A DNA stretch of 37,054 nt. It comes from a virus. The notes beneath the pieces were generated by a model. The model had not been told where the DNA came from. It ran no database searches and saw only the letters and a list, made by a program, of their open reading frames with translations. How positions within the stretch are numbered: position 1 is the first letter of the stretch; the number at the start of each line of letters is the position of its first letter. The stretch spans positions 1-37,054 of the IMG/VR virus record IMGVR_UViG_3300045988_168372; one strand, 5' to 3'. The position numbers were made by a program, and so were the translations under genes. Positions 1-37,054 of the stretch are shown here, one piece after another.

Positions 1-55
1 AATAATTTTAAAGGAGAGAGGTTAATAATGAAAAAAATAATATTAAGTGCAGACA
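1..55. repeat. Terminal overlap copy 1, identical to 37000-37054 (circular-closure signature)
   Basis: Direct read: both ends read aataattttaaaggagagaggttaataatgaaaaaaataatattaagtgcagaca. Confidence 0.9.
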
Positions 56-1011
56 TAGGGAAATATGAAACGGAGCTTACAGGAAGAGATATAGATTTAA
101 CTTCAGATGATAGAAAGGTAGTTAGATTTAGAACTAAGATGTATGATCTTGCAGATGGAGATATAGATGTTGAAGGTAATAGTCATTTAGTTGAGTTTAA
201 TAAGAAAAAATATATAGTTGGAGAGCAAGGTCAAGAAAAAAGTGAAGATACTTCAAAAACAGAATTCTTACACCAATTAGCATGTTATACTGCTATAACA
301 CAATTTTTAGAACCAGGAACTAAAGACAATGAAATATATATGGTATTAGCATGTCCTATGAGTGTTTTACTTATTAAAGAAGCTAAAGAAGAATATAAGA
401 ATTTCATAAAAGGTGACGGAGTTATAAAAATAACTGTAGATGGTAATAATTATGAGTTTGAAATAAAAGATATAACTATAAAGGCAGAAGGTAGTGGAAT
501 ATTATATTTAGAACCTAATTTATTTAAGGATCAAACTGTAGCCATAGTAGATTTAGGTGGATTAAATATGGGAATGAGTCTATATGTTAATATGGTTTGT
601 AAAAAGGATGATAGATTCATAGAAGAATGTGGAACAGATAGATTAATAGAAATAACAAGAGAGCAGCTTTCAGTATATAAAAATGGTAATTTAGTTAAGA
701 GAGATATAGCTGAAAAAGCATTAAAAGAAGGTGGACTTAAGAAAGCAGGTAAATTAGATACTGAGAGTGTAGAGTATATTAAAAAGACAAAGGAAGAATA
801 TTACAAAGAAGTAATGAAGATTATAAAAGAGCATAAGGTGGATGTAGACCAACTAGATAGAGTTATATTTGTTGGAGGAACGACAGAACATATAAAAGAA
901 AATATAAGTAAGAATTTAGAACATGCTTATATTCCTTCAAATCCTCAATTAAGTACAGTAGAAGGATTATATAAAGTAGCATTTAAGAAATATGGTAAGG
1001 AGAGTAAATAA
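28..1011 (+). CDS. parM: ParM/Alp-family actin-like plasmid segregation ATPase
   Basis: Actin-fold ATPase motifs in order: SADIGKYETE (phosphate 1), IVDLGGLNMG (phosphate 2), VIFVGGTTEHI (adenosine). RBS aaaggagagagg sits 8 nt upstream. Followed by an RHH gene and preceded by 11-bp iterons. Confidence 0.8.
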   Translation: MKKIILSADIGKYETELTGRDIDLTSDDRKVVRFRTKMYDLADGDIDVEGNSHLVEFNKKKYIVGEQGQEKSEDTSKTEFLHQLACYTAITQFLEPGTKDNEIYMVLACPMSVLLIKEAKEEYKNFIKGDGVIKITVDGNNYEFEIKDITIKAEGSGILYLEPNLFKDQTVAIVDLGGLNMGMSLYVNMVCKKDDRFIEECGTDRLIEITREQLSVYKNGNLVKRDIAEKALKEGGLKKAGKLDTESVEYIKKTKEEYYKEVMKIIKEHKVDVDQLDRVIFVGGTTEHIKENISKNLEHAYIPSNPQLSTVEGLYKVAFKKYGKESK

Positions 1012-4628: not shown

Positions 4629-4772
4629 ATGGAAAAATTAAGAGATAAGTTACATGAAGCTATAGATAAATATGGGTTAGATTACGATAAGGTTATAGAA
4701 GTTGATAAAAGACTTCATGAGGATATCATTAAGAAACAAAGATGTATATTAGGAGGGAAAGAAAATGCTTAA
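4629..4772 (+). CDS. Spo0E-like small helical protein (unlisted micro-ORF)
   Basis: 47 aa: MEKLRDKLHEAIDKYGLDYDKVIEVDKRLHEDIIKKQRCILGGKENA. Length and spacing match the Spo0E-family pattern (L-R-x-L ... G L ... V-I-E-x ... L-x-x-x-I ... Q-R). The catalytic SQELD motif position reads DKRLH. Confidence 0.45.
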   Translation: MEKLRDKLHEAIDKYGLDYDKVIEVDKRLHEDIIKKQRCILGGKENA

Positions 4773-6971: not shown

Positions 6972-7904
6972 ATGATAAAGATATTAGAGTTATTTGGCGG
7001 AATTGGTTCTCCTCGTAAAGCTTTAGTTAATCTAGGGGTTCCTGTGAAGTCGATAGACTATGTGGAAATAGATAGAAAAGCAGTAAGAAGTTACAATGAA
7101 ATGTTTAAGAAAGATTTAGAATATAAAACTCAATCGGTAGTTGGGTATAATCTTAAACCTGACATTCTTATACATGGGAGTCCTTGCCAGAGTTTCAGTA
7201 TAGCCGGTAAGCAAGAGGGAGCTGATGAAGGCTCAGGAACAGAAAGTAGTCTTATGTGGGAAACTCTTAATATTATTAAACAAATGGGAGTTTGGAAGCC
7301 AAGAATAGTTATATGGGAGAATGTTAAAAATGTTCTCTCAAAGCATATGAGACATAATTTTAATAGATATTTAGATGAAATGGAGAAATTAGGGTATAAA
7401 AATAAATTTGATGTTTTAAATGCTATGGATTTTGGATTGCCACAAGATAGAAATAGGGTTTTTACAATATCTATTTTAGGTGAAAATTTATTTGATTTTG
7501 AGAAGTTAGAAAAAAAGGAAACACCACATATAAAAGAATTTTTAGAAGAAAATGTAGAAGAAAAATATATAGTTAAACAACCGAGTATGCTTAGAAGAAT
7601 AGGGGGAAGCGGAAGTTTTAAAGGTAGATTAGAAATAATAGAAGACCATTGTAAAACAATAACTTGTAAGCAGATGCGCTGCCCTAATTCAGGAATCGTT
7701 GACTTAGGAAATGGACTATATAGATATTTAACGGAAAAAGAATGTTGGAGACTACAAGGCTATTCTGATGAAGATTTTAATGCTGCTTTAAAGGTGCATC
7801 CAGGAAGAGAAGGTAAACTCAATGGAGCATTATATAAACAAGCTGGAAATAGTATTCCAGTAACTATATTTGAAAGTATATTTAAGCAGATATTGGATAT
7901 TTAG
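6972..7904 (+). CDS. DNA (cytosine-5)-methyltransferase, orphan
   Basis: Canonical C5-MTase motifs in order: ELFGGIGS (I), GSPCQSFS (IV), WENV (VI), QDRNRVF (VIII), GNSIPV (X). No adjacent endonuclease. Confidence 0.95.
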   Translation: MIKILELFGGIGSPRKALVNLGVPVKSIDYVEIDRKAVRSYNEMFKKDLEYKTQSVVGYNLKPDILIHGSPCQSFSIAGKQEGADEGSGTESSLMWETLNIIKQMGVWKPRIVIWENVKNVLSKHMRHNFNRYLDEMEKLGYKNKFDVLNAMDFGLPQDRNRVFTISILGENLFDFEKLEKKETPHIKEFLEENVEEKYIVKQPSMLRRIGGSGSFKGRLEIIEDHCKTITCKQMRCPNSGIVDLGNGLYRYLTEKECWRLQGYSDEDFNAALKVHPGREGKLNGALYKQAGNSIPVTIFESIFKQILDI

Positions 7905-10434: not shown

Positions 10435-10590
10435 ATGAAAATAAGAGAAATAGTTAAAGGAAAACAACCTAAGGAATTTAATAAAATTAATAAACTTAGG
10501 GATAAGAAATTTAATGAAAATGAACTGAAAGACCTTATGAGCCATAGTTCTTATAAGAGAAAAAATGGAGCGTTAAGACAAATAAAATGA
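10435..10590 (+). CDS. Possible 51-aa basic protein coupled to the recombinase gene
   Basis: ATG at 10435 with RBS ggggtga. Its stop overlaps the recombinase start (ATGA). Excisionase or accessory role is only a guess. Confidence 0.35.
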   Translation: MKIREIVKGKQPKEFNKINKLRDKKFNENELKDLMSHSSYKRKNGALRQIK

Positions 10591-11234
10591 ATTCCATAAA
10601 CAATCGAGGGGAGAAGGTGCCAGCAGTTCCTATACCAGAAGATAAGTATGAACAGTTTAAGTATAGGCTTGAAGAATTAAGTGGGAAATATGCAGAAAGA
10701 AATATGATGCTATTTTTTTTAGGAGTAGCAACTGGATATAGAACTCAAGATATTGTAAGGCTTACTGTAGGAGAAATTAAAGAAGCTTTAGAAGAAGATA
10801 GATTTTTAATACAGGAGCAGAAACAATACAAAGCGTGGTTAAAACATATAAGAGAAAATCCAGGGTCTACTAGAAAAGCACCTAAAAAGAGAGAAGTTCC
10901 AATAAAGAGTAGATTAAGAAAGTTACTAAGAGAATTTATTAAAGGGAAAAGTAAATCTCAGTATGCTTTTCCATCTAATAAAGGGAGTTCTCACATATCT
11001 GCTAAGAGTTTTAGTAATATTTTAGCTGAAGTTGGTAAGTCTTTAGGAATTAAAAATATATCAGGTCATAGTATGAGGAAGACTTATGCGACTAGATATT
11101 GGATAGCTAAAAGAGATCTGGAAGGATTAAGAAGAGCATTAGGTCATAAAAGTATAGAGACAACGAAAAATTATTTAGGATTAGATGAAAAAGTCTTTGA
11201 TTCTGCAGCAACAATAGCAGATGATAAGCTTTGA
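10587..11234 (+). CDS. Tyrosine site-specific recombinase, catalytic domain only (215 aa)
   Basis: Catalytic signature: GYRTQD (Arg I), GHSMRKTYATRYW (H-x-x-R), LGHKSIETTKNYL (His...Tyr nucleophile). No N-terminal core-binding or arm-binding domain. Confidence 0.85.
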   Translation: MNSINNRGEKVPAVPIPEDKYEQFKYRLEELSGKYAERNMMLFFLGVATGYRTQDIVRLTVGEIKEALEEDRFLIQEQKQYKAWLKHIRENPGSTRKAPKKREVPIKSRLRKLLREFIKGKSKSQYAFPSNKGSSHISAKSFSNILAEVGKSLGIKNISGHSMRKTYATRYWIAKRDLEGLRRALGHKSIETTKNYLGLDEKVFDSAATIADDKL

Positions 11235-28203: not shown

Positions 28204-31131
28204 ATGATAAACAAACTTTTTCTTGATTTAAACAACTTTAAGCCTAATCTAGGTAGTGTTGAACGTGGAGATAGTATAGAACTTAATATTAAGTTATTAA
28301 ACGATGAGGATTACTCTAGAAGTAAATTTAGATTGTTAGGGGCTAAATCTGATGGAAAATCTGTAGAGCAAATTGAAGGATTAAACTTAGAAGAAAAAGA
28401 CTTGAAAGTTGTTTTAGAAGATCAATTTGTTAATTGTGAAGGCATAGTTAAATTAGAACTTAATGTAGTATCTGGAGAAACAGAAATTACTACTAAAGAG
28501 TTCTATTTTTTTGTATCAAATACAATGAATGCAGAAATAATTGATAGCGCTGATTCAATTCCAACTTTAGAAAAAGTATCTAAATATGTTGATGATGCTG
28601 TTAATAATTTAGATGCTTTAAAAGAAGCTAGTGAAGATATAACAATTATAAATTCTGAATTTAAAGAGAATGAGATAAAAAGAAAAGCTAATGAAATGTT
28701 AAGAGAAAAAAATGAAAAAGCTAGATTGCAATCAGAGGATATTAGAATTACAGAAGAAGAGGAAAGAGTAGCAAATGAACTTGAAAGAATAAAAGCTGAA
28801 AATAATAGAAAAGTTTCTGAAAGTAATAGAAAAGTTTCTGAGAATACTAGAGTAACTAATGAAAGAGCTAGAGAGGAAGCTGAGCTTAGCAGGCAATCAA
28901 CTTTTGAAGAAAATGAAGAGATAAGAAATTCAAATGAAAATTTAAGAATAGAATCCGAAAAAGAAAGAATTAAATTTAATAATAAAGCTAAAACTGATGA
29001 AGTGAATAGGAAGGAAGCTGAGACTAAAAGAGTTGAGGCGGAAAAAACTAGGGTTATAGCAGAAGATGAAAGAAAAAAAGCTGAAACTTCAAGACAAGAG
29101 GCAGAAGATATAAGACAAAATACTTATACTAATTTCAATGAAGCTGAAGAAGAAAGAAGAAATAATGAAATTAGCAGGCAAGAGGCTGAAGCTTTAAGAA
29201 CTGAAGCTGAAAAAAGAAGAGATGATCTTTACAGTCAGAAAGAAGAAGAAAGAAATGCTGCATTCCTTGAAAGTGAAAGAACTAGAGGTACAGCTTTTAA
29301 TGAAGCTCAAAACGATAGAAATCTAACTTTTGAAGAAAGTGAGAGAGTTAGAGAAGAGGCTTTTAAAGTAAGTGAAGCAGCAAGGAATGAGGCAGAAGAG
29401 GGAAGAGTAGCAGCAGAACTTTTAAGAGCTGAAGCTGAAAAGCTTAGAGTTGCAGGAGAAGAAAATAGAAATAATACTTTTACTCAGAATGAAGAAGAAA
29501 GACAAGGCATTTTTGAAGAAGCTGAGAATGCTAGAAAAGTAGCTGAGAGTAAAAGAGTTGCTGCGGAAACTGGAAGAGTAGAAGCGGAAAAGCTTAGAGT
29601 AACAGCAGAAACTGGAAGAGTAGAGGCTGAGAATTTAAGAGTTACAGCAGAAGAGGGAAGAGTAGCTGCGGAGACTAAAAGAGAAGAAGGATTCAATGCG
29701 TTCGAGGGTAAAATAAATGCTAATACAGAAGAGTTAAAGAACGCTAGATCCGCAACAACTGGAGAGAAATTTAATAGCTTAGACGAAAGAATTGATTGTG
29801 AAGTAGATAGACTTAATAAGAAAATAGAAGTTTCTATGCTGCAACAAGAAGATAAAGAAAGTCATGCTATAGAAAATTCTATTGAGGGTATGACAACTAA
29901 TATGATTGTTAAGGGTAGGACTTTACAAAATTTTAAAGCTGATATCAAAAATGCAATCTCAAAATGGGTAGATAGTGGAGATAATTACTCTTTAAATTTG
30001 CCTAGTGGAAGTGGACAACCATCTATTTTATATGGATTAACTCAAACGTTAAAAGAAAATCAAAAATATACGGTTATAGTCAATTTAATAGAATATACTT
30101 CAGGAGCTCTTCATTTTTCTTTTATGAATAGTGATGGAAATAAATTAGCATCAACAACTGAATTAGTGGCAGAATCTAAAGGGTTAAAAAAGTTTGTTTT
30201 TACTATAAATAACACAATAAAGGCTGAAACTTTAAGGCTTTTACCTAGAAATGGCATTAATAATATCTATTCTGTTAGTAAAAATATATTGATATTAGAA
30301 GGTGATTGGACAAATAAGCCTATTCCTCAATATTTTGAGGACATAAAATCCTTTGGACAACAAGAAGATAAAATTAGTATTTTAAGTCATAATGAAGGTT
30401 CTATAAAACAAAATAAAAAAGATATTTTATTGCAAAATTTAGGGTTTGATGAAGGACTTAGAGGAATAAATTATATAAGTGATGAACTTAATTCTTTAAG
30501 AAATGTTGCTATAAAAAGAATAGATAAAAGAGAGTATAGAGAAGGTGATGAATCGCTAGAAAATATAATAACAGATAAAACGAATACTTATTATGTTTTA
30601 GAAGAACCAATAGAAACCCCTTTAACTAAAAACATTAACGTAAAATCTTTTAATGAAAAAACTTATGTTAGATTTGAAAATGCTATAAGTGGTACAAGTA
30701 GTTTTAAAGCACCAGTTAACGCAGCAGCTACTATTTCTCGCTTGAATAGAGAGAATAGAGCTTTAGAAGAAGAAAATAAAAATTTAAGACAAGATTTTGA
30801 ATCAACTACATTAACACTAACTGATAGTGATTTAGAACTTGTAAAGCAAAATGTAGATATGGACTTCAGGTTAATGGAAGTAGAATTTGCTTTAGATATT
30901 CCACAAGCAATTCTAAGTTCAGATATAAAATTTAAAAATAAGAAAGGTGAAGTGAAAAGTATGGCAAGAACTCCTTATGAAATGATGAAAATAGTTATCT
31001 TAAGCGGAGATTATGACAGAGAGGATTATATGCACAAAGTTGGAAAGTACTACGAAAGAAGAAGAATGACTAAAGAAGAGCATGATGAATTAATGAGTTT
31101 AATGACAGCGGATGAAGTAATAAGTAAGTAG
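28204..31131 (+). CDS. Tail fibre with long Glu/Arg-rich coiled-coil repeat region
   Basis: 975 aa. BppU-like N-terminus. About 350 aa of AE..R / RxEAE repeats. Globular distal region. Confidence 0.7.
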   Translation: MINKLFLDLNNFKPNLGSVERGDSIELNIKLLNDEDYSRSKFRLLGAKSDGKSVEQIEGLNLEEKDLKVVLEDQFVNCEGIVKLELNVVSGETEITTKEFYFFVSNTMNAEIIDSADSIPTLEKVSKYVDDAVNNLDALKEASEDITIINSEFKENEIKRKANEMLREKNEKARLQSEDIRITEEEERVANELERIKAENNRKVSESNRKVSENTRVTNERAREEAELSRQSTFEENEEIRNSNENLRIESEKERIKFNNKAKTDEVNRKEAETKRVEAEKTRVIAEDERKKAETSRQEAEDIRQNTYTNFNEAEEERRNNEISRQEAEALRTEAEKRRDDLYSQKEEERNAAFLESERTRGTAFNEAQNDRNLTFEESERVREEAFKVSEAARNEAEEGRVAAELLRAEAEKLRVAGEENRNNTFTQNEEERQGIFEEAENARKVAESKRVAAETGRVEAEKLRVTAETGRVEAENLRVTAEEGRVAAETKREEGFNAFEGKINANTEELKNARSATTGEKFNSLDERIDCEVDRLNKKIEVSMLQQEDKESHAIENSIEGMTTNMIVKGRTLQNFKADIKNAISKWVDSGDNYSLNLPSGSGQPSILYGLTQTLKENQKYTVIVNLIEYTSGALHFSFMNSDGNKLASTTELVAESKGLKKFVFTINNTIKAETLRLLPRNGINNIYSVSKNILILEGDWTNKPIPQYFEDIKSFGQQEDKISILSHNEGSIKQNKKDILLQNLGFDEGLRGINYISDELNSLRNVAIKRIDKREYREGDESLENIITDKTNTYYVLEEPIETPLTKNINVKSFNEKTYVRFENAISGTSSFKAPVNAAATISRLNRENRALEEENKNLRQDFESTTLTLTDSDLELVKQNVDMDFRLMEVEFALDIPQAILSSDIKFKNKKGEVKSMARTPYEMMKIVILSGDYDREDYMHKVGKYYERRRMTKEEHDELMSLMTADEVISK
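29563..29688 (+). repeat. Tandem 42-bp (14-aa) repeats inside the fibre gene
   Basis: Units 29563-29604 and 29605-29646 plus a diverged third unit encode AETGRVEAEKLRVT / AETGRVEAENLRVT / AEEGRVAAETKRE. Confidence 0.8.
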
Positions 31132-31216
31132 AAATTTAATGAATAGATTAGCAATAAGATTAGAGCTTAAAGCTCTTTTTTTATTGCTTTTTAAAATAAT
31201 AAAAAGAGGTGTATAA

Positions 31217-31642
31217 ATGGAAAAGTTATTTGATTACATTAAATTATTAGTAATGGCATTAGGAACTGGATTAACTTGGTTGTTGGGTGTATGGGATATA
31301 CCATTAATCACTTTGGTTATTTTTATGATATTAGATCAGCTAACTGGTGTAATTAGAGGGTATGTAAATAAGGATTTAAGCAGCGATGTAGGATTAAAAG
31401 GAATAGCACGAAAATGTGTAATACTTATAGTTCTTATAGTTGCTGTATCATTAGATAGATTACTTAATACTGGAAGTTGGATGTTTAGAACAATGGTGGC
31501 ATATTTTTATATAGCAAATGAAGGAATTAGTTTATTAGAAAATTGTGCAAGTTTAGGAGCACCTATTCCAGAAAAATTAAAAAATGCATTAATACAACTT
31601 AAAGAAGGTAAGAAGAAAGAACCAATAAATGAAAATGCATAA
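31217..31642 (+). CDS. Holin (toxin-secretion/phage-lysis holin family, TcdE/phi-LC3 type)
   Basis: Three TM segments. Family-typical DQLTGVIRGY ... GLKGIARKC ... YIANEGISLLENCASLGAPIPEKL. Confidence 0.85.
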   Translation: MEKLFDYIKLLVMALGTGLTWLLGVWDIPLITLVIFMILDQLTGVIRGYVNKDLSSDVGLKGIARKCVILIVLIVAVSLDRLLNTGSWMFRTMVAYFYIANEGISLLENCASLGAPIPEKLKNALIQLKEGKKKEPINENA

Positions 31643-31705
31643 GTTGAAAGGATCTGCAAAGATCCTTTTATTATTTTAAAAATTAATTTAATAGGAGTGA
31701 TTGAT

Positions 31706-32395
31706 ATGAGTAAAATTTTTGGATTAGATGCAGGACATTGTACAAGTGGGGCAGATACTGGAGCGCAAGGAAATGGATATAAGGAGCAAGATTTAACAAG
31801 ACAAGTAGTTACTTATTTAAGTGAATACTTAGAAAAAGAAGGACATACAACTAAGTACTGTCATTGTAACAGTGCTAGTACTGTAAATGAAAGTTTAAGA
31901 TATAGAGTTAATAAAGCTAACTCTATAGGTGTAGATTATTTTGTTTCAATTCATTTTAACGCAGGTGGTGGAGTAGGAACAGAAACTTATATTTGTGCTA
32001 GAGGTGGAGAAGCAGAAAGAGTAGCTAAGAGAGTTAACTCTAAGTTAGTACATTATGGTTATAGAGATAGAGGAGTTAAGGTAGGAAACTTATATGTAAT
32101 TAAAAACACTAATGCGCCAGCTATATTAGTAGAAGTTTGTTTTATAGATTCTTCATCAGATGTAGCTAAATTTAATGCTAAGGCTATTGCTAAAGCTATT
32201 GCAGAAGGTTTATTAGATAAAACTATAGGAGAAGTTGAAAATAAGCCTGAAAGCGTTCCAGGTAATACAGAAACTTCTAACACATACTTTAGAGTTGTAG
32301 TTGGAAGCTATAAAGACAGAGAAAATGCAGTAAAGAAACAAGAAGAATTAAAAGCTAAAGGTGAGGATAGTTTCTTATTAGCTTATAAAGAATAG
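31706..32395 (+). CDS. Endolysin: N-acetylmuramoyl-L-alanine amidase (Amidase_3) with C-terminal SPOR-like domain
   Basis: GLDAGHC...GAQG, FVSIHFNAGGG, GTETY. C-terminus YFRVVVGSYKDRENAVKKQEELKAKGEDSFLLAYK. I prefer the ATG at 31706 (RBS aggag). Confidence 0.85.
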   Translation: MSKIFGLDAGHCTSGADTGAQGNGYKEQDLTRQVVTYLSEYLEKEGHTTKYCHCNSASTVNESLRYRVNKANSIGVDYFVSIHFNAGGGVGTETYICARGGEAERVAKRVNSKLVHYGYRDRGVKVGNLYVIKNTNAPAILVEVCFIDSSSDVAKFNAKAIAKAIAEGLLDKTIGEVENKPESVPGNTETSNTYFRVVVGSYKDRENAVKKQEELKAKGEDSFLLAYKE

Positions 32396-32396
32396 T

Positions 32397-32435
32397 AAAA
32401 AGCAAGGTAGGTTAATTCCTACCTTGCTTTTTTTA
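32397..32435 (+). terminator. Intrinsic terminator of the late/lysis operon
   Basis: Stem AGCAAGGTAGG (32401-32411) / CCTACCTTGCT (32418-32428), then a T-run. Confidence 0.85.
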
Positions 32436-32514
32436 TTTTCTTAAGAAATTTATTTTATTTTTTATAAAAAGCAAGAAACATTTTTTTATTTTTACATATT
32501 ATGAACTATAAAGC

Positions 32515-32537
32515 GTACAAAGTACAGTACATTGTAC
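32515..32537. promoter_or_regulatory. 23-bp GTAC-rich near-palindrome (operator-like)
   Basis: gtacaaagtac a gtacattgtac: 11-bp arms with one mismatch, directly upstream of the RBS of the accessory operon. Confidence 0.5.
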
Positions 32538-32556
32538 AACAATAGGAGGGATTTAA

Positions 32557-32718
32557 ATGTTAGATATTATTTATAATTATTGCAAAATGTTAGGGGAAGT
32601 TTTTGGATTTGGGGCATTTGAAGGAGCTGTTATATATGCAGGTATAATTTCTTATGGTTTTTTAAGAGCTTTAGGAGGTAATAAAGAAAAGAAAATAATA
32701 ATGGCTAGGAGCAAATAA
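32557..32718 (+). CDS. Possible 53-aa small hydrophobic protein
   Basis: ATG at 32557 with RBS aggaggg. MLDIIYNYCKMLGEVFGFGAFEGAVIYAGIISYGFLRALGG... Below the track cutoff. Confidence 0.45.
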   Translation: MLDIIYNYCKMLGEVFGFGAFEGAVIYAGIISYGFLRALGGNKEKKIIMARSK

Positions 32719-32720
32719 AA

Positions 32721-33056
32721 ATGTTAGGAGCTATGTTTTTTACAGCAATAACAACAACATCAAGTTGGTTTATTGCTAAGAAGATTATAAATAAAAAGAC
32801 TAATTTTGAAGCACATGTTAAAAAAAGATTCTTAAGAACTATTGAGGAAATGAAAGATCAGCAATTAACTAATAGTAATATGACTTTTGGATTAGAAGAT
32901 ATAAATCAAAATGAAACTGGATTTGAAGCAAGATTAATTATTCCAATAGGACTTTGTGAGGATAATTTTATAAAAATAATTCCATACTTAGAGAATGCTT
33001 TTTCAAGTACTATAGAGTATAAAGCTTATCATGTGAAGTTTGTAAGGAGGAGTTGA
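32721..33056 (+). CDS. Membrane-anchored hypothetical protein
   Basis: N-terminal TM helix MLGAMFFTAITTTSSWFIA. Tightly packed ahead of the ATPase gene. Confidence 0.5.
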   Translation: MLGAMFFTAITTTSSWFIAKKIINKKTNFEAHVKKRFLRTIEEMKDQQLTNSNMTFGLEDINQNETGFEARLIIPIGLCEDNFIKIIPYLENAFSSTIEYKAYHVKFVRRS

Positions 33057-33060
33057 GTTT

Positions 33061-34362
33061 ATGATACTAGAAGCGATGATAAGTGCAGCATTAGGTGGAG
33101 CGGTATATGGATATATTGAAAGTAGAAGAGAACAAAAAGAAGAAATAGAGTTAGAAAAAGAAAAAATAGAGCAATTAAATAATATTAATACATGGAAAAA
33201 GTGTTTAGAGCTTTCAGATACTAAAGGAATTAGAAATAAAATAGGAGAAACATTTTTGATAGAAAAGTATATAAAAACTGATTATGGATTTTTAGCTAAA
33301 GTAAAGGCGCCATTAGGATGTGATTGGATGGCTTTAAAAAATGTTGGAAGTGAAATAGAAACAGCATTTAAGGGAACTGTAGAAATAAAAAAAGATAAGT
33401 ATAGTGATTATATTGATATAGAAGTGATAACTAAGAAGCCAGAATTTGTTTTTAGTCCTATAAAAACAAATTGCAATGAATGGTTTGGAGGATTAAAAGC
33501 AAATGGAGAGCCATATCTAATTTCATTAGATGAAAATCCACATGTTTGTTATACAGGCACTACAGGAACAGGAAAAACATTCACTGAGTTTGTAAGTGTA
33601 ACCAATTTATTATATAACTATAAAAATGATTTTGAGGTTTATATAACTCAGTTGATAAATGGAGAGACTAAGATATTTTCTAAGTGTAAACCAGTTAAGC
33701 TTTTTGCAGATACTTTAGAAGAAGCATTAGTAATATTAAGGCAAGTAGCAGAAAAGGCTGATGCTAGAGCAAAAGAGTTAAATAAATATGGTTATGTAAG
33801 TGTAAAACATTGGAATGATGAAAATCCAGATAAAGCTTTTAAGAGAATAATTTTACTTATGGATGAATTTAGTTTCTTTAAGGTTGAAGAAGGAGATGGT
33901 GAGGAAGTTAAAAAATTAAAAAATGAATGTGAGATATATTTAAAAAGGATAGCTAAAACTGGGAGAGCTATGGCAATAAGCATTGTAATGGTATTGCAGA
34001 AAAGCACTGTAGAAAATGTAAATAGTACAATACGTTCTCAGATGTGTGTAATTAGCTTAAGGCAATTTTCAGGGCAAGATTCAAAGGTTGCAATAGGAAC
34101 AACTGAAGCAGCTAGATTAAATGAATTTGAAGCAATAATAAAAGGAAATGGAATATATGAGAAAGTATTTATACCAAGAATAAAATCAAAACAACCTCAG
34201 ATACATTTAGCTAAATATGTTCCTGAAATTGTTATACCTAAAAAAGGAGTTATTTTAAAAGAGAAAATTAAAGAAATACCAATAGAAGAAAAAACTAATA
34301 ATATAATAGTAGAGTCTAAGAAAAAGAAAATTAAAAAGAATAGAAATGTTAAGGGGGCTTAA
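33061..34362 (+). CDS. FtsK/SpoIIIE-family (TcpA/TraB-like) DNA-translocase ATPase
   Basis: N-terminal hydrophobic segment. Walker A YTGTTGTGKTF. Walker B RIILLMDEFSFF. Lys-rich tail. Confidence 0.8.
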   Translation: MILEAMISAALGGAVYGYIESRREQKEEIELEKEKIEQLNNINTWKKCLELSDTKGIRNKIGETFLIEKYIKTDYGFLAKVKAPLGCDWMALKNVGSEIETAFKGTVEIKKDKYSDYIDIEVITKKPEFVFSPIKTNCNEWFGGLKANGEPYLISLDENPHVCYTGTTGTGKTFTEFVSVTNLLYNYKNDFEVYITQLINGETKIFSKCKPVKLFADTLEEALVILRQVAEKADARAKELNKYGYVSVKHWNDENPDKAFKRIILLMDEFSFFKVEEGDGEEVKKLKNECEIYLKRIAKTGRAMAISIVMVLQKSTVENVNSTIRSQMCVISLRQFSGQDSKVAIGTTEAARLNEFEAIIKGNGIYEKVFIPRIKSKQPQIHLAKYVPEIVIPKKGVILKEKIKEIPIEEKTNNIIVESKKKKIKKNRNVKGA

Positions 34363-34364
34363 TT

Positions 34365-34973
34365 ATGCTTAAAGAAAGAGATTGGAACATTTTAAGGCAT
34401 ATAGAAATGTATGGAGCTATATCTCTTAAAAATGTAAGTAGTCTATATTTTGATGGTGAATATAAAACAGAAGAATATAGATATAGATGCGCTGCTAGAA
34501 GAATGCAGGCGTTGGAAAAGAAAGGGATACTTTTAAGCTATAGGAATAGCTATACTGAAGAAAAAATATTTTATTTAAATAAAAAAGTTTCTCCACATGA
34601 TTTATTTATACAAGATCTCTGGAGGAAGTTAAAAGAGTTGGATTTTAAAATTTTAGAGTTTAACACTAATGTTAGTTTAATGAACGGGCAATTAAAGCCA
34701 GATGCTTTAATTGTTGCTGACTATGAAGGAACTATAGTTAATTATTTTTTAGAAGTAGATTTAAATCATTACACTTCTAAGTCGAAATTAATTAAATATG
34801 AAATGTTTTATAAATCTGATGAATTTAAGAAGATTTGCAATTCAGAAAGTCCTTGTCTAATAATAGCAAGACCTACACATACCAGGGATATAAGATTAAC
34901 ATCTAAATTGTTTGATATCATTTATACAGATCTTAAATATTCTAAATTAGAGCGATTTATTTTTGAAGATTAA
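34365..34973 (+). CDS. Replication-relaxation family-like protein (winged HTH + PD-(D/E)xK-like core)
   Basis: N-terminus ERDWNILRHIEMYGAISLKNVSSLYF ... AARRMQALEKKGIL. Later KPDALIV ... YFLEVDLNHYT. Coupled to the ATPase gene. Confidence 0.55.
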   Translation: MLKERDWNILRHIEMYGAISLKNVSSLYFDGEYKTEEYRYRCAARRMQALEKKGILLSYRNSYTEEKIFYLNKKVSPHDLFIQDLWRKLKELDFKILEFNTNVSLMNGQLKPDALIVADYEGTIVNYFLEVDLNHYTSKSKLIKYEMFYKSDEFKKICNSESPCLIIARPTHTRDIRLTSKLFDIIYTDLKYSKLERFIFED

Positions 34974-35059
34974 ATTGTACAATAACTTATCTAATAGCAT
35001 ATACAATAGTTTGTCTAGGGTATTCACATTCTACAGCTTAAGAATTAGTAATAAAGCCA

Positions 35060-35159
35060 AAGGGGTTGTCCATAGTAATAATAAAAAAATAAGAAAAGAA
35101 AATAAACCCCTTATGGTTGCTACATATATATCTATATATGTCCTTATATTCATATAAGG
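35060..35159. repeat. Two inverted repeats in the intergenic region after the replication-relaxation gene
   Basis: AAGGGGTT (35060-35067) / AACCCCTT (35105-35112) around an A-rich 37-nt spacer, and CCTTATAT (35142-35149) tc ATATAAGG (35152-35159). Confidence 0.55.
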
Positions 35160-35262
35160 TTGTGCTTCAAATCATAAGAAAAGATTTTTACAAATCAAAA
35201 GAAAAACACTTATCCAGTGTTAATAAATTAGCTGATTAGCTAATAAAAAAGGAGTGACTTAA

Positions 35263-35784
35263 ATGTGGTCAAAAAAGACACATAAAATTGCTGACTTTAT
35301 AAGTCTTATTCTAGTAATAACTTTAAGTTTAATAACAATAACCTATTTACTAGATTTAGGCTTGTTAGGTAAACTTTTAGCTTTAGTAATAGCTTCTATA
35401 TTTATTAGAATATCATATTTTTATTTTTTGCAGAAAATAAAAATATGGCTAAAACCTAAAAAGGTTAAAAAGCAAACTATTACTAAAGCAAAAGTACATG
35501 AGTCAAGTTTAGATTTACAACAAAATTATTTAATTGATTTACAATCCCAAGCTAGTCAATTATTTAAGGTTGCTGTACAATCTAAAAAACTTTCTAGAGC
35601 TGAGATTATTAATGCTAAAGACTTTTTAAAGTCAAATATTAATGATCCTACTCTATCAGATAAAATATACAGCAATGAAGCACACTGTATATATAGCTAT
35701 CTTAAAAGTGAAAACATAAATGAAATTACTTTAAATAAGTTTATAAAAATCATTTTTACTTTTGCTAATAAGAAAGCTGCTTAA
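35263..35784 (+). CDS. Two-TM membrane protein, unknown function
   Basis: 173 aa. Hydrophobic N-terminal ~55 aa, basic linker, soluble C-terminal domain. RBS aaggagtga. Confidence 0.55.
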   Translation: MWSKKTHKIADFISLILVITLSLITITYLLDLGLLGKLLALVIASIFIRISYFYFLQKIKIWLKPKKVKKQTITKAKVHESSLDLQQNYLIDLQSQASQLFKVAVQSKKLSRAEIINAKDFLKSNINDPTLSDKIYSNEAHCIYSYLKSENINEITLNKFIKIIFTFANKKAA

Positions 35785-35864
35785 TATTTATTTCATATCT
35801 TTATTATTACCTTAGGGTTAATTAATTATACATATAATTTTTTAACTCTTTTTTTATTTTAAAA

Positions 35865-35890
35865 GTGTCATAAATTAACGGTTATGATAC
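35865..35890. promoter_or_regulatory. Inverted repeat, res-like or operator site upstream of the resolvase operon
   Basis: GTGTCATAA (35865-35873), 8 nt, TTATGATAC (35882-35890), one mismatch. Further GTGTCA/GTATCA half-sites at 35927-35944. Confidence 0.4.
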
Positions 35891-35906
35891 CAACAAAAGA
35901 AAGATG

Positions 35907-35916
35907 ATGATATAAT
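35907..35916 (+). promoter_or_regulatory. Extended -10 promoter element
   Basis: TGaTATAAT at 35908-35916. No good -35 element. Confidence 0.4.
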
Positions 35917-35963
35917 ACTTTTAAAGGTGTCAAAAATAAGTATCAAAAGCAAAGGGGGATTTT

Positions 35964-36212
35964 ATGTTTTCAGGAAGGATAAATAGTTATAAAGGGTATA
36001 TAAATAGTAAAAAAATATATTTAAAAAGAAAAAAACAATTAAATAGAGAAATTAAAATTATAAAAAGAAAAAAGAAGAAATCTAAATCAATAGGAAAAAA
36101 ATATTTTGGAAGGATAATAGAGAAAGGTAAAGATGACATTTATATATTAAGGATTATGTACAACAATAGGAAAAGAGAGTACAAGTTAAAAAGTAAAAGA
36201 AAAAGATTTTAA
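35964..36212 (+). CDS. Extremely basic 82-aa protein
   Basis: Visibly dominated by Lys/Arg runs (KRKKQ, KRKKKKSK, KLKSKRKRF). RBS aaaggggga. Directly upstream of the resolvase. Confidence 0.4.
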   Translation: MFSGRINSYKGYINSKKIYLKRKKQLNREIKIIKRKKKKSKSIGKKYFGRIIEKGKDDIYILRIMYNNRKREYKLKSKRKRF

Positions 36213-36221
36213 GGAGAAAAT

Positions 36222-36809
36222 ATGATAATAGGATATTGTAGAGTATCATCTAAAGGACAAATTGATAATAATAGTTTAGAGCAGCAGGAAAGAGAAATAA
36301 TAGAAAAATATAATAATGTAGAAATATACAAAGAACAATATACTGGAACTACAATGGATAGACCAATTTTAAATGAGGTATTAGATAAATTAAATAAAGG
36401 AGATACTCTTGTAGTATCTAAACTAGATAGATTAGCCAGAACAACAAAAGAAGGTATTACTATAATTGAGATGTTATTTAATAAAAATGTAGCAGTTCAT
36501 GTTCTTAATGTTGGATTATTAGAAAATACTATAATGGGAAGATTCTTTTTAACAACTTTATTAGCAGTAGCAGAAATGGAAAGGAATATGATAATTGAAA
36601 GGACAAGATCAGGAAAGGAAATAGCTAGGACTAAAGAAGGATATAAAGAAGGTAGACCGAAGAAGTATAGTAAGAAGCAAATAGATAATGCATTATCTAT
36701 GTTAACAGTTAATGGTGGGGTATATAGCTATAAAGAAGTTGAAGAATTAGTAGGAATAAGTAAGAGTACTTTAATTAGAGCACAAAAACAAAATTTAGGT
36801 ATATATTAG
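36222..36809 (+). CDS. Serine recombinase (small resolvase/invertase type)
   Basis: IIGYCRVSSKGQ (catalytic Ser), LVVSKLDRLARTT, C-terminal HTH VEELVGISKSTLIRAQ. RBS aaggag. Confidence 0.9.
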   Translation: MIIGYCRVSSKGQIDNNSLEQQEREIIEKYNNVEIYKEQYTGTTMDRPILNEVLDKLNKGDTLVVSKLDRLARTTKEGITIIEMLFNKNVAVHVLNVGLLENTIMGRFFLTTLLAVAEMERNMIIERTRSGKEIARTKEGYKEGRPKKYSKKQIDNALSMLTVNGGVYSYKEVEELVGISKSTLIRAQKQNLGIY

Positions 36810-36933
36810 GTATAATTTAGGTGTAAAAATTAGATATATAGAGAAAAACTAAGAAAATATACCTAAAAATATTAATAATTTAGGTATATAGTATTTGCAC
36901 TTAGGTATAATTTAGGTATAATTTAGGTATAAG
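36794..36933. repeat. parC-like centromere: clusters of 11-bp TTAGGTATAAT iterons
   Basis: Copies at 36795, 36806 and 36817 (TTAGGTGTAA). One inverted copy at 36858-36866. Further copies at 36880, 36901, 36912 and 36923. The last three are exact tandem 11-mers. An embedded promoter reads TTGCAC (36895-36900), 16 nt, TATAAT (36917-36922). Confidence 0.65.
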
Positions 36934-36999
36934 TAATTTGAAAGTGTCAAATCTTTTGGAAACTCATTCAGCCATTCAGGCGGGAGTTAATATAAATAA

Positions 37000-37054
37000 A
37001 ATAATTTTAAAGGAGAGAGGTTAATAATGAAAAAAATAATATTAAGTGCAGACA
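37000..37054. repeat. Terminal overlap copy 2, identical to 1-55. It includes the RBS and first 9 codons of parM (37028-37054).
   Basis: Direct comparison of both ends. Confidence 0.9.

Follow-up and report, generated by a model that had tools for sequence, protein, structure and literature searches.

The stretch of DNA analysed here, "the window" in what follows, is IMG/VR virus record IMGVR_UViG_3300045988_168372 over its whole length of 37,054 nucleotides. It is a phage-plasmid of Clostridium perfringens, and after its lysis genes it carries an operon encoding two small proteins with hydrophobic segments, a 433-amino-acid (aa) FtsK/TcpA-like ATPase and a 202-aa protein that joins a winged helix-turn-helix (wHTH) to a PD-(D/E)xK centre; the latter protein, and its family, will be called RR. 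In our reading, to which we would give a probability of roughly 0.6, this module is a sequence-targeted, membrane-anchored DNA pump that acts on the element's own DNA, with RR as its loader and probable nickase. What such a pump would be for is less clear, and our preference for a mobilisation unit, in which an element-encoded coupling ATPase, a MOB_C-like relaxase and an origin of transfer (oriT) make use of resident conjugation pores, is tentative. In either case we propose that the module belongs to the plasmid side of a circular phage-plasmid.

The motor, its winged-helix partner and their candidate sites

The 433-aa protein is a motor of the FtsK/TcpA type, in agreement with the FtsK/SpoIIIE assignment made in the initial annotation. 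It matches phrog_1358 ("FtsK/SpoIIIE-like") with an E-value of 2e-39, and its top sequence match in the PDB is TcpA (6o1w, 4e-7). When its AlphaFold2 (AF2) model (predicted local distance difference test, pLDDT, 74) was searched with Foldseek, TcpA again came first (5.8e-22), followed by the FtsK motor (4.4e-18), EssC/EccC (1e-12) and HerA (1e-9), with a TM of about 0.55-0.6 over ~360 columns for the alpha/beta motor fold. The match to the Pfam family FtsK_SpoIIIE (PF01580) has an E-value of 4e-4 and, at 20.3 bits, falls under the gathering score of 24, while homologues at 34-66% identity have precomputed matches to the same family. The Walker A (GTTGTGKT, residues 166-173) and Walker B (ILLMDE, residues 264-269) motifs are intact, as had been claimed, and G301-R302, Q313 and Q335, which form the GR and Q motifs, are invariant across fused and unfused relatives of the ATPase. 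Its C-terminus (376-433) is, according to the model and the alignment, disordered and basic, and ends in a conserved peptide, RN[VI]KGA; no gamma winged-helix domain was found there, the wHTH coming instead from the next gene or, in relatives, from a fusion. Such a motor would be expected to form a hexamer and to translocate DNA at the expense of ATP.

The description of RR as a wHTH plus PD-(D/E)xK protein was also borne out, its kinship with the replication-relaxation proteins being probable. In the AF2 model (pLDDT 87.8) a winged helix makes up the N-terminal half and a restriction-endonuclease-like fold the C-terminal half, the two resembling MecI/BlaI/MarR and Bax1, McrC, BbvCI and a splicing endonuclease, respectively, all with Foldseek E-values above 1e-3. 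Fifteen of 18 close homologues and 33 of 45 diverse ones match Replic_Relax (PF13814), the best at 1.3e-10, and because of these transitive matches RR can be placed, as far as sequence can tell, on a divergent branch of the Replic_Relax/MOB_C family. Among relaxases, PF13814 is equivalent to the MOB_C class (PMC5357655). TraX, the prototype of this class, combines a wHTH with a PD-(D/E)xK centre and binds to a set of five direct repeats within oriT (PMC12857230). Over the 45 diverse sequences, with identities to the window's RR down to 22%, D113 is invariant and E130 nearly so, and D132, H135 and K141 are invariant in the 18 close homologues. RR also matches phrog_2190 ("replication initiation protein", 2e-5) and phrog_9381 ("replication initiation by nicking", 8e-5), but no Rep family of Pfam or NCBIfam (Rep_3, RepA_N, Rep_trans and others), and a search of the PDB with the RR-family profile returned no solved relative.

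A profile search of 1.84 billion representative proteins yielded 469 relatives of RR, and at least 11 of the best 150 clusters contain proteins of 612-676 aa in which an FtsK-like ATPase (N-terminal) is fused to RR (C-terminal). In every context the genes for the two proteins are adjacent or overlapping. Because of this constant neighbourhood and these fusions, ATPase and RR are probably physical partners. In one 338-aa protein (P0179) the RR domain is joined not to an FtsK-like ATPase but to an N-terminal Cys/His pattern that by eye resembles a zinc-finger or HNH nuclease, which again hints at a part for the RR domain in cutting or targeting DNA.

The sites that RR might recognise lie on both sides of these genes. 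A terminator closing the late operon and a separate four-gene operon behind it had been described, and all of these elements are indeed present, the four open reading frames (ORFs) that follow the operator being separated by only 2-4 nt; terminator-like sites number six in 31000-37054, against 1.1 expected. The 23-bp sequence at the operon start had been called a GTAC palindrome. It does hold four GTAC, a number that none of 300 shuffles reached in any 23-nt span (the whole window has 55), but it is a near-palindrome only, with one mismatched arm pair (positions 7/17) and an unpaired central base (position 12). Its outer GTACAA/TTGTAC boxes are kept in three other lineages (LPCPA58, L011 and L016/17, where L-numbers denote comparison lineages or loci carrying the module) and are absent in L002-4, where a gene for a ribbon-helix-helix (RHH) protein precedes the operon. 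A TATAAA/TATAGA box is conserved 2-3 nt upstream of the operator, in the window as a TATAAA -10-like box at 32507-32512. Since the outer boxes and this box are kept together in three lineages that have no upstream regulator gene, a role as operator is supported. A sigma-70 scan from the terminator to the first ATG showed no consensus promoter, and sigma-E/K-like boxes, sought by eye, were dropped as unsupported.

On the other side, most contexts have 276 nt or more of non-coding DNA behind RR; an exception is L015, where the distance to the next gene is 46 nt. In the window this region (34974-35262) shows identities of 69-81%, compared with 71-79% for the FtsK-like and RR coding sequences. The unit, which had been drawn to end with RR, should extend to 35262 so as to include this conserved intergenic site, and it probably extends to 35784, taking in a co-conserved 173-aa membrane protein. 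The site opens, 2 nt past the RR stop codon, with an array of four direct repeats whose pattern, defined post hoc, is unique in the window and did not arise in any of 100 shuffles. Different repeats occupy the equivalent place in other lineages, as would be expected if protein and site co-evolve. Behind the array there are three stem-loops, the first formed by GCCAAAGGGGTT and AACCCCTTATGG around an A-rich loop of 37 nt, the second (ACATATATA-TC-TATATATGT) and third (CCTTATAT-TC-ATATAAGG) both AT-rich; across six lineages the stems are conserved and the loops variable, with few compensatory changes. The palindrome TTGTACAA occurs both at the operator (32532-32539) and at the first repeat (34975-34982), and RR, being the only recognisable DNA-binding protein in the window's operon, is the likely reader of both sites.

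Membrane association was part of the initial annotation for three of the four proteins, and it holds to different degrees. The 53-aa protein has one clear hydrophobic segment, and homologues of it stand upstream of the pump in LPCPA58, L002 and L007. The N-terminal hydrophobic segment of the ATPase (KD19 1.48) and that of the 111-aa protein are only moderate, so that anchoring is probable in both cases. The 111-aa protein is by its alignments a paralogue of the N-terminal part of the pump, matching pump residues 44-110 in BLASTP (E-value 4e-4) and hhalign (probability 89.8%, E-value 1.8e-6, 66 columns). In front of each pump that has no N-terminal hydrophobic helix (L013, L014 and D-1873) lies a gene for a separate 54-58-aa protein with one transmembrane segment, at its N-terminus; thus membrane anchoring seems to be conserved, either in cis or in trans. 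RHH-like small proteins are encoded within the operon in L002, L005, L007, Sarcina and C. tetani, and RHH is the commonest fold among relaxosome accessory factors (PMC12857230). The gene for the 173-aa protein is 89% identical in nucleotide sequence to its LPCPA58 counterpart, above the module's own genes (73-79%), and in integrated relatives it is the last prophage gene before the host mutS; the protein could be assigned to no family.

Taken as a mechanism, the N-terminal winged helix of RR would bind TTGTACA-type boxes, both as the inverted pair in the operator, for autoregulation, and as the four direct repeats, and its PD-(D/E)xK centre would nick or cut in the adjacent hairpin-rich region. 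RR would then recruit the FtsK/TcpA-like hexameric motor, and this motor, held at the membrane by its own N-terminal helix and by the 53-aa and 111-aa partners, would pump the phage-plasmid DNA across a membrane barrier.

Table 1. Features of the module and of the element carrying it (positions in the window)
Feature	Position	Strand	Remarks
Intrinsic terminator closing the late (lysis) operon	32397..32432	+	15-bp stem (6 GC pairs), 6-nt loop, T-run
Near-palindromic operator GTACAAAGTACAGTACATTGTAC	32515..32537	.	four GTAC; outer GTACAA/TTGTAC boxes
53-aa mini-protein, single transmembrane segment	32557..32718	+	KD17 1.72, one clear hydrophobic segment
111-aa protein with hydrophobic N-terminus	32721..33056	+	KD19 1.30, moderate; paralogue of pump N-terminal region
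433-aa FtsK/TcpA-like ATPase	33061..34362	+	N-terminal helix, small beta domain, RecA-type core, disordered basic tail
RR, 202-aa wHTH + PD-(D/E)xK, divergent Replic_Relax/MOB_C-like	34365..34973	+	P112-D113...E130-x-D132...H135-Y-T...K141
289-nt intergenic cis region (candidate)	34974..35262	.	conservation about equal to flanking genes
Four 12-bp-phased direct repeats, core WTRTMYA	34975..35017	+	TTGTACA / TTATCTA / ATATACA / TTGTCTA
Three conserved stem-loops	35056..35159	.	DNA fold z = -3.44; 0/200 shuffles fold as well
173-aa protein, two transmembrane segments	35263..35784	+	co-conserved with module in C. perfringens lineages
Small serine recombinase, resolvase type	36222..36809	+	Pfam Resolvase 1.2e-34
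ParM-like actin-family partition ATPase	28..1011	+	ALP_N 2.9e-17; phrog_691 6e-44; adjoins module on circle
Tyrosine recombinase, short (215 aa)	10587-11234		just upstream of TerS
Holin	31217-31642		after tail genes
Amidase with SPOR domain	31697-32395		after holin

Carriers of the module

The ends of the window (1-55 and 37000-37054) are identical, and this exact overlap of 55 nt means that it is a circular assembly of 36,999 bp. It has a GC content of ~28%, nearly all of its genes are on the + strand, and its siphovirus-type late region is complete, from TerS through the tail genes to holin and amidase. On the circle the resolvase precedes the ParM operon (28-1806). A circular 36.3-kb C. perfringens plasmid deposit, pZ1322WCP0013-3, encodes FtsK-like and RR proteins 99% identical to those of the window. 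A phage late region, plasmid functions and a relative at 99% that was deposited as a plasmid together identify the element as a phage-plasmid. No replication initiator, helicase, primase or SSB was recognisable among the window's proteins, and tblastn of the RepA_N, ParM and neighbouring proteins of phage LPCPA58 against the window uncovered no hidden or decayed rep, only the module proteins being matched.

The initial annotation had regarded such a pairing as not typical of tailed phages, which cannot be upheld, since the same block is found in C. perfringens prophages, in LPCPA58, in D-1873 and in a C. tetani phage-plasmid and has been reported from Bacillus phages (PMC11526630, PMC9658697, PMC4113786). 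In chromosomal C. perfringens prophages the order is helix-turn-helix protein, RHH-like protein (54 aa), transmembrane protein (52 aa), then proteins of 107, 434, 202 and 173 aa, and the module forms the last genes, after holin and amidase and directly before the host mutS. The same five genes recur in LPCPA58 (76% nucleotide identity), accompanied by ParM, RepA_N, DnaG, SSB and RecT. A ParM-like gene lies ahead of the ATPase-RR pair in L005 and L007, a resolvase and ParA lie upstream of it in L013, which also has a DnaG/DnaB-type primase-helicase, and ParA adjoins it in Sarcina. In L015, TubR/TubZ and a tyrosine recombinase are downstream of the pair, and in the c-st-type C. botulinum phage D-1873 the pair is divergent from TubR-TubZ; in C. 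botulinum phage c-st itself at least the RR homologue was found. The 45.6-kb C. tetani phage-plasmid shows the succession ParM, serine recombinase, RHH, transmembrane protein, FtsK and wHTH, and a large C. tetani plasmid also carries a distant copy of the module.

One carrier, pCP118-34k, lacks annotated phage genes and looks like an ordinary plasmid of C. perfringens, with two annotated rep genes, a helicase, ParM and a toxin-antitoxin pair; a search of its large hypothetical proteins for domains of type IV secretion systems (T4SS) found none. A serine recombinase is located directly upstream of its operon, and serine recombinases adjoin the module in C. tetani and L013 as well. Contigs of ~4-4.6 kb that contain the pair, considered as minimal plasmids that would prove a replicon, were rejected, as they proved to be pieces of larger elements, their outermost genes being cut off by the contig ends.

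The hosts seen (Clostridium, Sarcina and Thermoanaerobacterium, with Bacillus added from the literature) are all endospore formers. BLAST searches with the clostridial module matched only Clostridium phages and no Bacillus phages, although FtsK/SpoIIIE and replication-relaxation genes near partition genes have been annotated in the latter (PMC11526630, PMC9658697, PMC7685451, PMC4113786).

A few other features of these genomes deserve mention. In otherwise near-identical prophages the interval between lysin and module is a variable cargo slot (L003 6103-7512 versus L002 7094-7573), occupied in one strain (L003) by a SocA_Panacea-domain gene and a 320-aa ORF and in another (L002) by a 159-aa ORF. 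In the window, the short tyrosine recombinase resembles Xer-type dimer-resolution enzymes more closely than complete phage integrases, in keeping with plasmid maintenance. An ORF-free gap of ~970 nt (1810-2780; GC 0.35 versus 0.28), with an equivalent in pZ1322WCP0013-3, separates the ParM operon from divergent repressors. A near-consensus promoter (TTTACA ... TGTATAAT, about 1931-1962) can be made out in it by eye, and it has an inverted repeat (arms 2130-2146 and 2151-2167) followed by a T-run. The appearance of this gap suggests an origin region or structured small RNAs, one or several; Rfam returned no family for the whole window at gathering thresholds, nor for 1700-2900 in E-value mode. 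An early-region ORF of 47 aa (4629-4772) encodes a Spo0E-like sporulation regulator (PF09388, 25.1 bits versus a gathering score of 23), through which the phage-plasmid may interfere with Spo0A phosphorylation. A Dcm-type cytosine methyltransferase gene (6972-7904) is 81-89% identical in nucleotide sequence to genes of C. perfringens phages vB_CpeS-1181 and phiCp-B, and, with no close match for the remainder of the early region, it looks like a mobile cassette. Directly upstream of the resolvase, an 82-aa ORF (35964-36212) is extremely basic (K/R-rich), falls into no family and could be spurious in such AT-rich DNA.

Possible roles of the pump

The initial annotation had left three roles open, namely a missing replication initiator, a minimal conjugative or mobilisation module, and an exclusion or defence device. 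Mobilisation fits best of the three, and we favour it, with the reserve expressed above, because every component of the module has a counterpart in the coupling-protein/relaxase/oriT/RHH modules of mobilisable elements. The phage-plasmid or prophage would ride the Tcp/Pcp conjugation pores common in C. perfringens, in the manner of CloDF13 mobB/mobC or of streptococcal integrative and mobilisable elements (IMEs). The order of coupling protein, PF13814 protein and serine recombinase mirrors that of streptococcal IME class 8 (PMC5357655), and C. perfringens commonly holds several conjugative plasmids, ftsK-bearing small plasmids in this species being suspected of mobilisability (PMC10210947). 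Obviously, one may object that no T4SS genes were found in the window and that MOB-suite typed 21 of 21 plasmid records carrying the pair as non-mobilizable. Yet the lack of a recognised T4SS or relaxase, and this typing, are what one would expect of a mobilisable element whose relaxase is too divergent for MOB-suite.

Several observations weigh against this picture. We know of no experiment on any member of these families. The window's own RR has no Pfam match, PF13814 being missed even at E <= 1; the Foldseek E-values for its nuclease fold are as high as reported above; the repeat pattern was defined after it had been seen; and the hairpins show little covariation. The hydrophobic helix of the pump is single and weak, while TcpA has two transmembrane domains. 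In a survey of streptococcal IMEs, MOB_C relaxases were paired with coupling proteins of the VirD4 type and TcpA-type ones with relaxases resembling those of rolling-circle replication (PMC5357655), and a combination of TcpA-type motor and MOB_C protein would therefore be unprecedented. Relatives are also reported from virulent Bacillus phages, for which mobilisation would be of little use (PMC9658697, PMC3601020). Finally, partition loci (ParM, ParA, TubZ) and resolvases are regularly found linked to the module, a pattern that points to vertical inheritance rather than transfer.

This last point leads to the main rival of mobilisation, which we consider a possible, if minority, explanation. 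The module could be a private SpoIIIE/FtsK, in which RR replaces the gamma domain and the repeat array replaces KOPS/SRS, and which moves the low-copy phage-plasmid, by clearance or import, through the septum formed at division or the asymmetric one formed at sporulation, so that it passes to daughters and spores. Besides its small serine recombinases and its partition neighbours (ParM on the circle of the window and in LPCPA58, L005, L007 and C. tetani, ParA in L013 and Sarcina, TubZ in D-1873 and L015), the restriction to endospore formers and the Spo0E-like protein encoded in the window would fit such a role, although that restriction may merely mirror the reach of homology searches. The motor has no gamma domain, and in many relatives a wHTH is fused to its C-terminus, just as in FtsK, SpoIIIE and TraB; a role in sporulation or segregation has, moreover, already been speculated upon for Bacillus phages (PMC4113786, PMC3359378, PMC3601020). 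On the other hand, the host's FtsK and SpoIIIE already move trapped DNA, a gamma-like targeting role needs no conserved nuclease centre, chromosomally integrated prophages keep the module, and no sporulation-type promoter was recognised.

A pump that needs no conjugation pore would be a Firmicutes counterpart of the Streptomyces TraB-clt system, and this we regard as unlikely. RR would cut the circle beside its own gene and the hexamer would drive the DNA across a closed septum into the forespore, an attached sister or a neighbouring cell. If true, phages of spore formers would gain a way into spores or new hosts that does not depend on virions.

It is quite unlikely that RR is instead the missing initiator, that is, the Rep of the plasmid form. 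In that case the four direct repeats would be iterons, the A-rich tract (35078-35106) and the hairpins an unwinding or nick region, and the inverted TTGTACA boxes an autoregulatory operator, with the FtsK-like protein as an accessory. The window and pZ1322WCP0013-3 have no recognisable Rep, helicase or primase, the module sits beside the partition locus, where a rep would be expected, and the sequence of operator inverted repeat, gene, direct repeats and AT-rich region is the classic layout of an iteron replicon, but that same layout fits an oriT or a centromere equally well. The two PHROG matches of RR bear names that speak for initiation, but those names are annotations rather than tests, and the ~4-kb candidates for minimal replicons are the fragments mentioned above. 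Relatives of the element, in addition, bring their own initiators or replication genes (RepA_N, DnaG and SSB in LPCPA58, two rep genes and a helicase in pCP118-34k, a primase-helicase in L013), and both the fusion of RR to a membrane-anchored pump and the conserved anchoring are hard to reconcile with a soluble initiator.

A defence or superinfection-exclusion device made of an FtsK/HerA-type ATPase and a PD-(D/E)xK nuclease, comparable to HerA-DUF4297 or Sir2-HerA and placed as a post-lysis "moron", is highly improbable: the module does sit at the right end of prophages, a place of variable accessory cargo (such as the SocA_Panacea insert between lysin and module in L003), PADLOC gave weak, generic matches for the ATPase (SspH 8.5e-8, mad8 and HerA 1e-4) and HerA defence complexes appear low in the Foldseek list (1e-9 to 1e-5), but RR and the small proteins match nothing in PADLOC, TcpA and FtsK are far better fold matches for the ATPase than HerA, the synteny is with partition and resolution genes rather than with defence islands, and the wHTH, the adjacent conserved cis site and the autoregulatory operator argue for recognition of the element's own DNA.

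Whichever role applies, the locus is a compact version of the module in a genetically tractable pathogen, and the fusions, the anchoring in cis or in trans, the linkage to three kinds of partition system and the candidate cis site make its function testable. If true, either mobilisation through conjugation pores or pumping into spores would provide an added route of transmission, and this would matter for the toxin-carrying C. botulinum group III phage-plasmids, which have distant copies of the module, and for the spread of C. perfringens prophages.

Comparison with known systems

To our knowledge, annotations of FtsK/SpoIIIE-like genes in Bacillus and Clostridium phages, in many cases with a "replication-relaxation" gene behind them, go back ~20 years, and the function of these genes has never been tested; there seems to be no earlier description of the fusions, of the anchors in trans, of the 111-aa paralogue or of the cis site. 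Both genes are reported for RBClin15 and Novomoskovsk/Bolokhovo, and an FtsK/SpoIIIE gene for gamma/W-beta-like phages, BtCS33 and phiCM3, while Replic_Relax lies near ParM/ParG in Izhevsk, which also has Xer-type recombinases, and near parABS in RBClin15 (PMC11526630, PMC9658697, PMC7685451, PMC4113786). The similarity of these Bacillus operons to the clostridial module is too low for BLAST, and the reports consist of annotation and of speculation on a role in segregation, replication or sporulation (PMC11526630, PMC9658697, PMC7685451, PMC4113786, PMC3359378, PMC3601020).

The closest known relative of the motor, by sequence and by fold, is TcpA of pCW3 (PDB 6o1w-6o1z), which comes from the same host species, and both proteins are membrane-anchored motors of the FtsK alpha/beta type without a gamma domain, anchoring being the probable state in our case. 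They share, however, only ~16% identity in the structural alignment, and the 433-aa protein has a single, weak N-terminal hydrophobic helix. Unlike pCW3, the phage-plasmid has no Tcp genes (TcpC, F, G, H, M, K), and the partner of its motor is PF13814-like rather than a tyrosine-recombinase-like relaxase such as TcpM.

RR, for its part, resembles the MOB_C relaxases (TraX of pAD1 and MobC of CloDF13) in its N-terminal winged helix, its PD-(D/E)xK centre and its conserved acidic residues, as well as in having direct repeats near its gene as a candidate binding site. CloDF13 is also a precedent for a non-conjugative element with its own coupling ATPase beside the relaxase (mobB-mobC). The differences are that the window's RR falls outside PF13814 itself, that its partner ATPase is of the FtsK/TcpA and not of the VirD4 type, and that its carriers are not typed as mobilizable.

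With TraB-clt, FtsK-gamma/KOPS and SpoIIIE-gamma/SRS the module shares a logic, in which a winged helix that reads short repeats directs an FtsK-type pump. In the TraB system the repeats are at the end of the pump gene, and in many relatives of our module the wHTH is fused to the C-terminus of the pump. The 433-aa protein nevertheless scores only 25.6 bits against the NCBIfam TraB model, whose cut-off is 800, and the targeting part has a nuclease domain and is usually a separate protein; the hosts, moreover, are unicellular Firmicutes.

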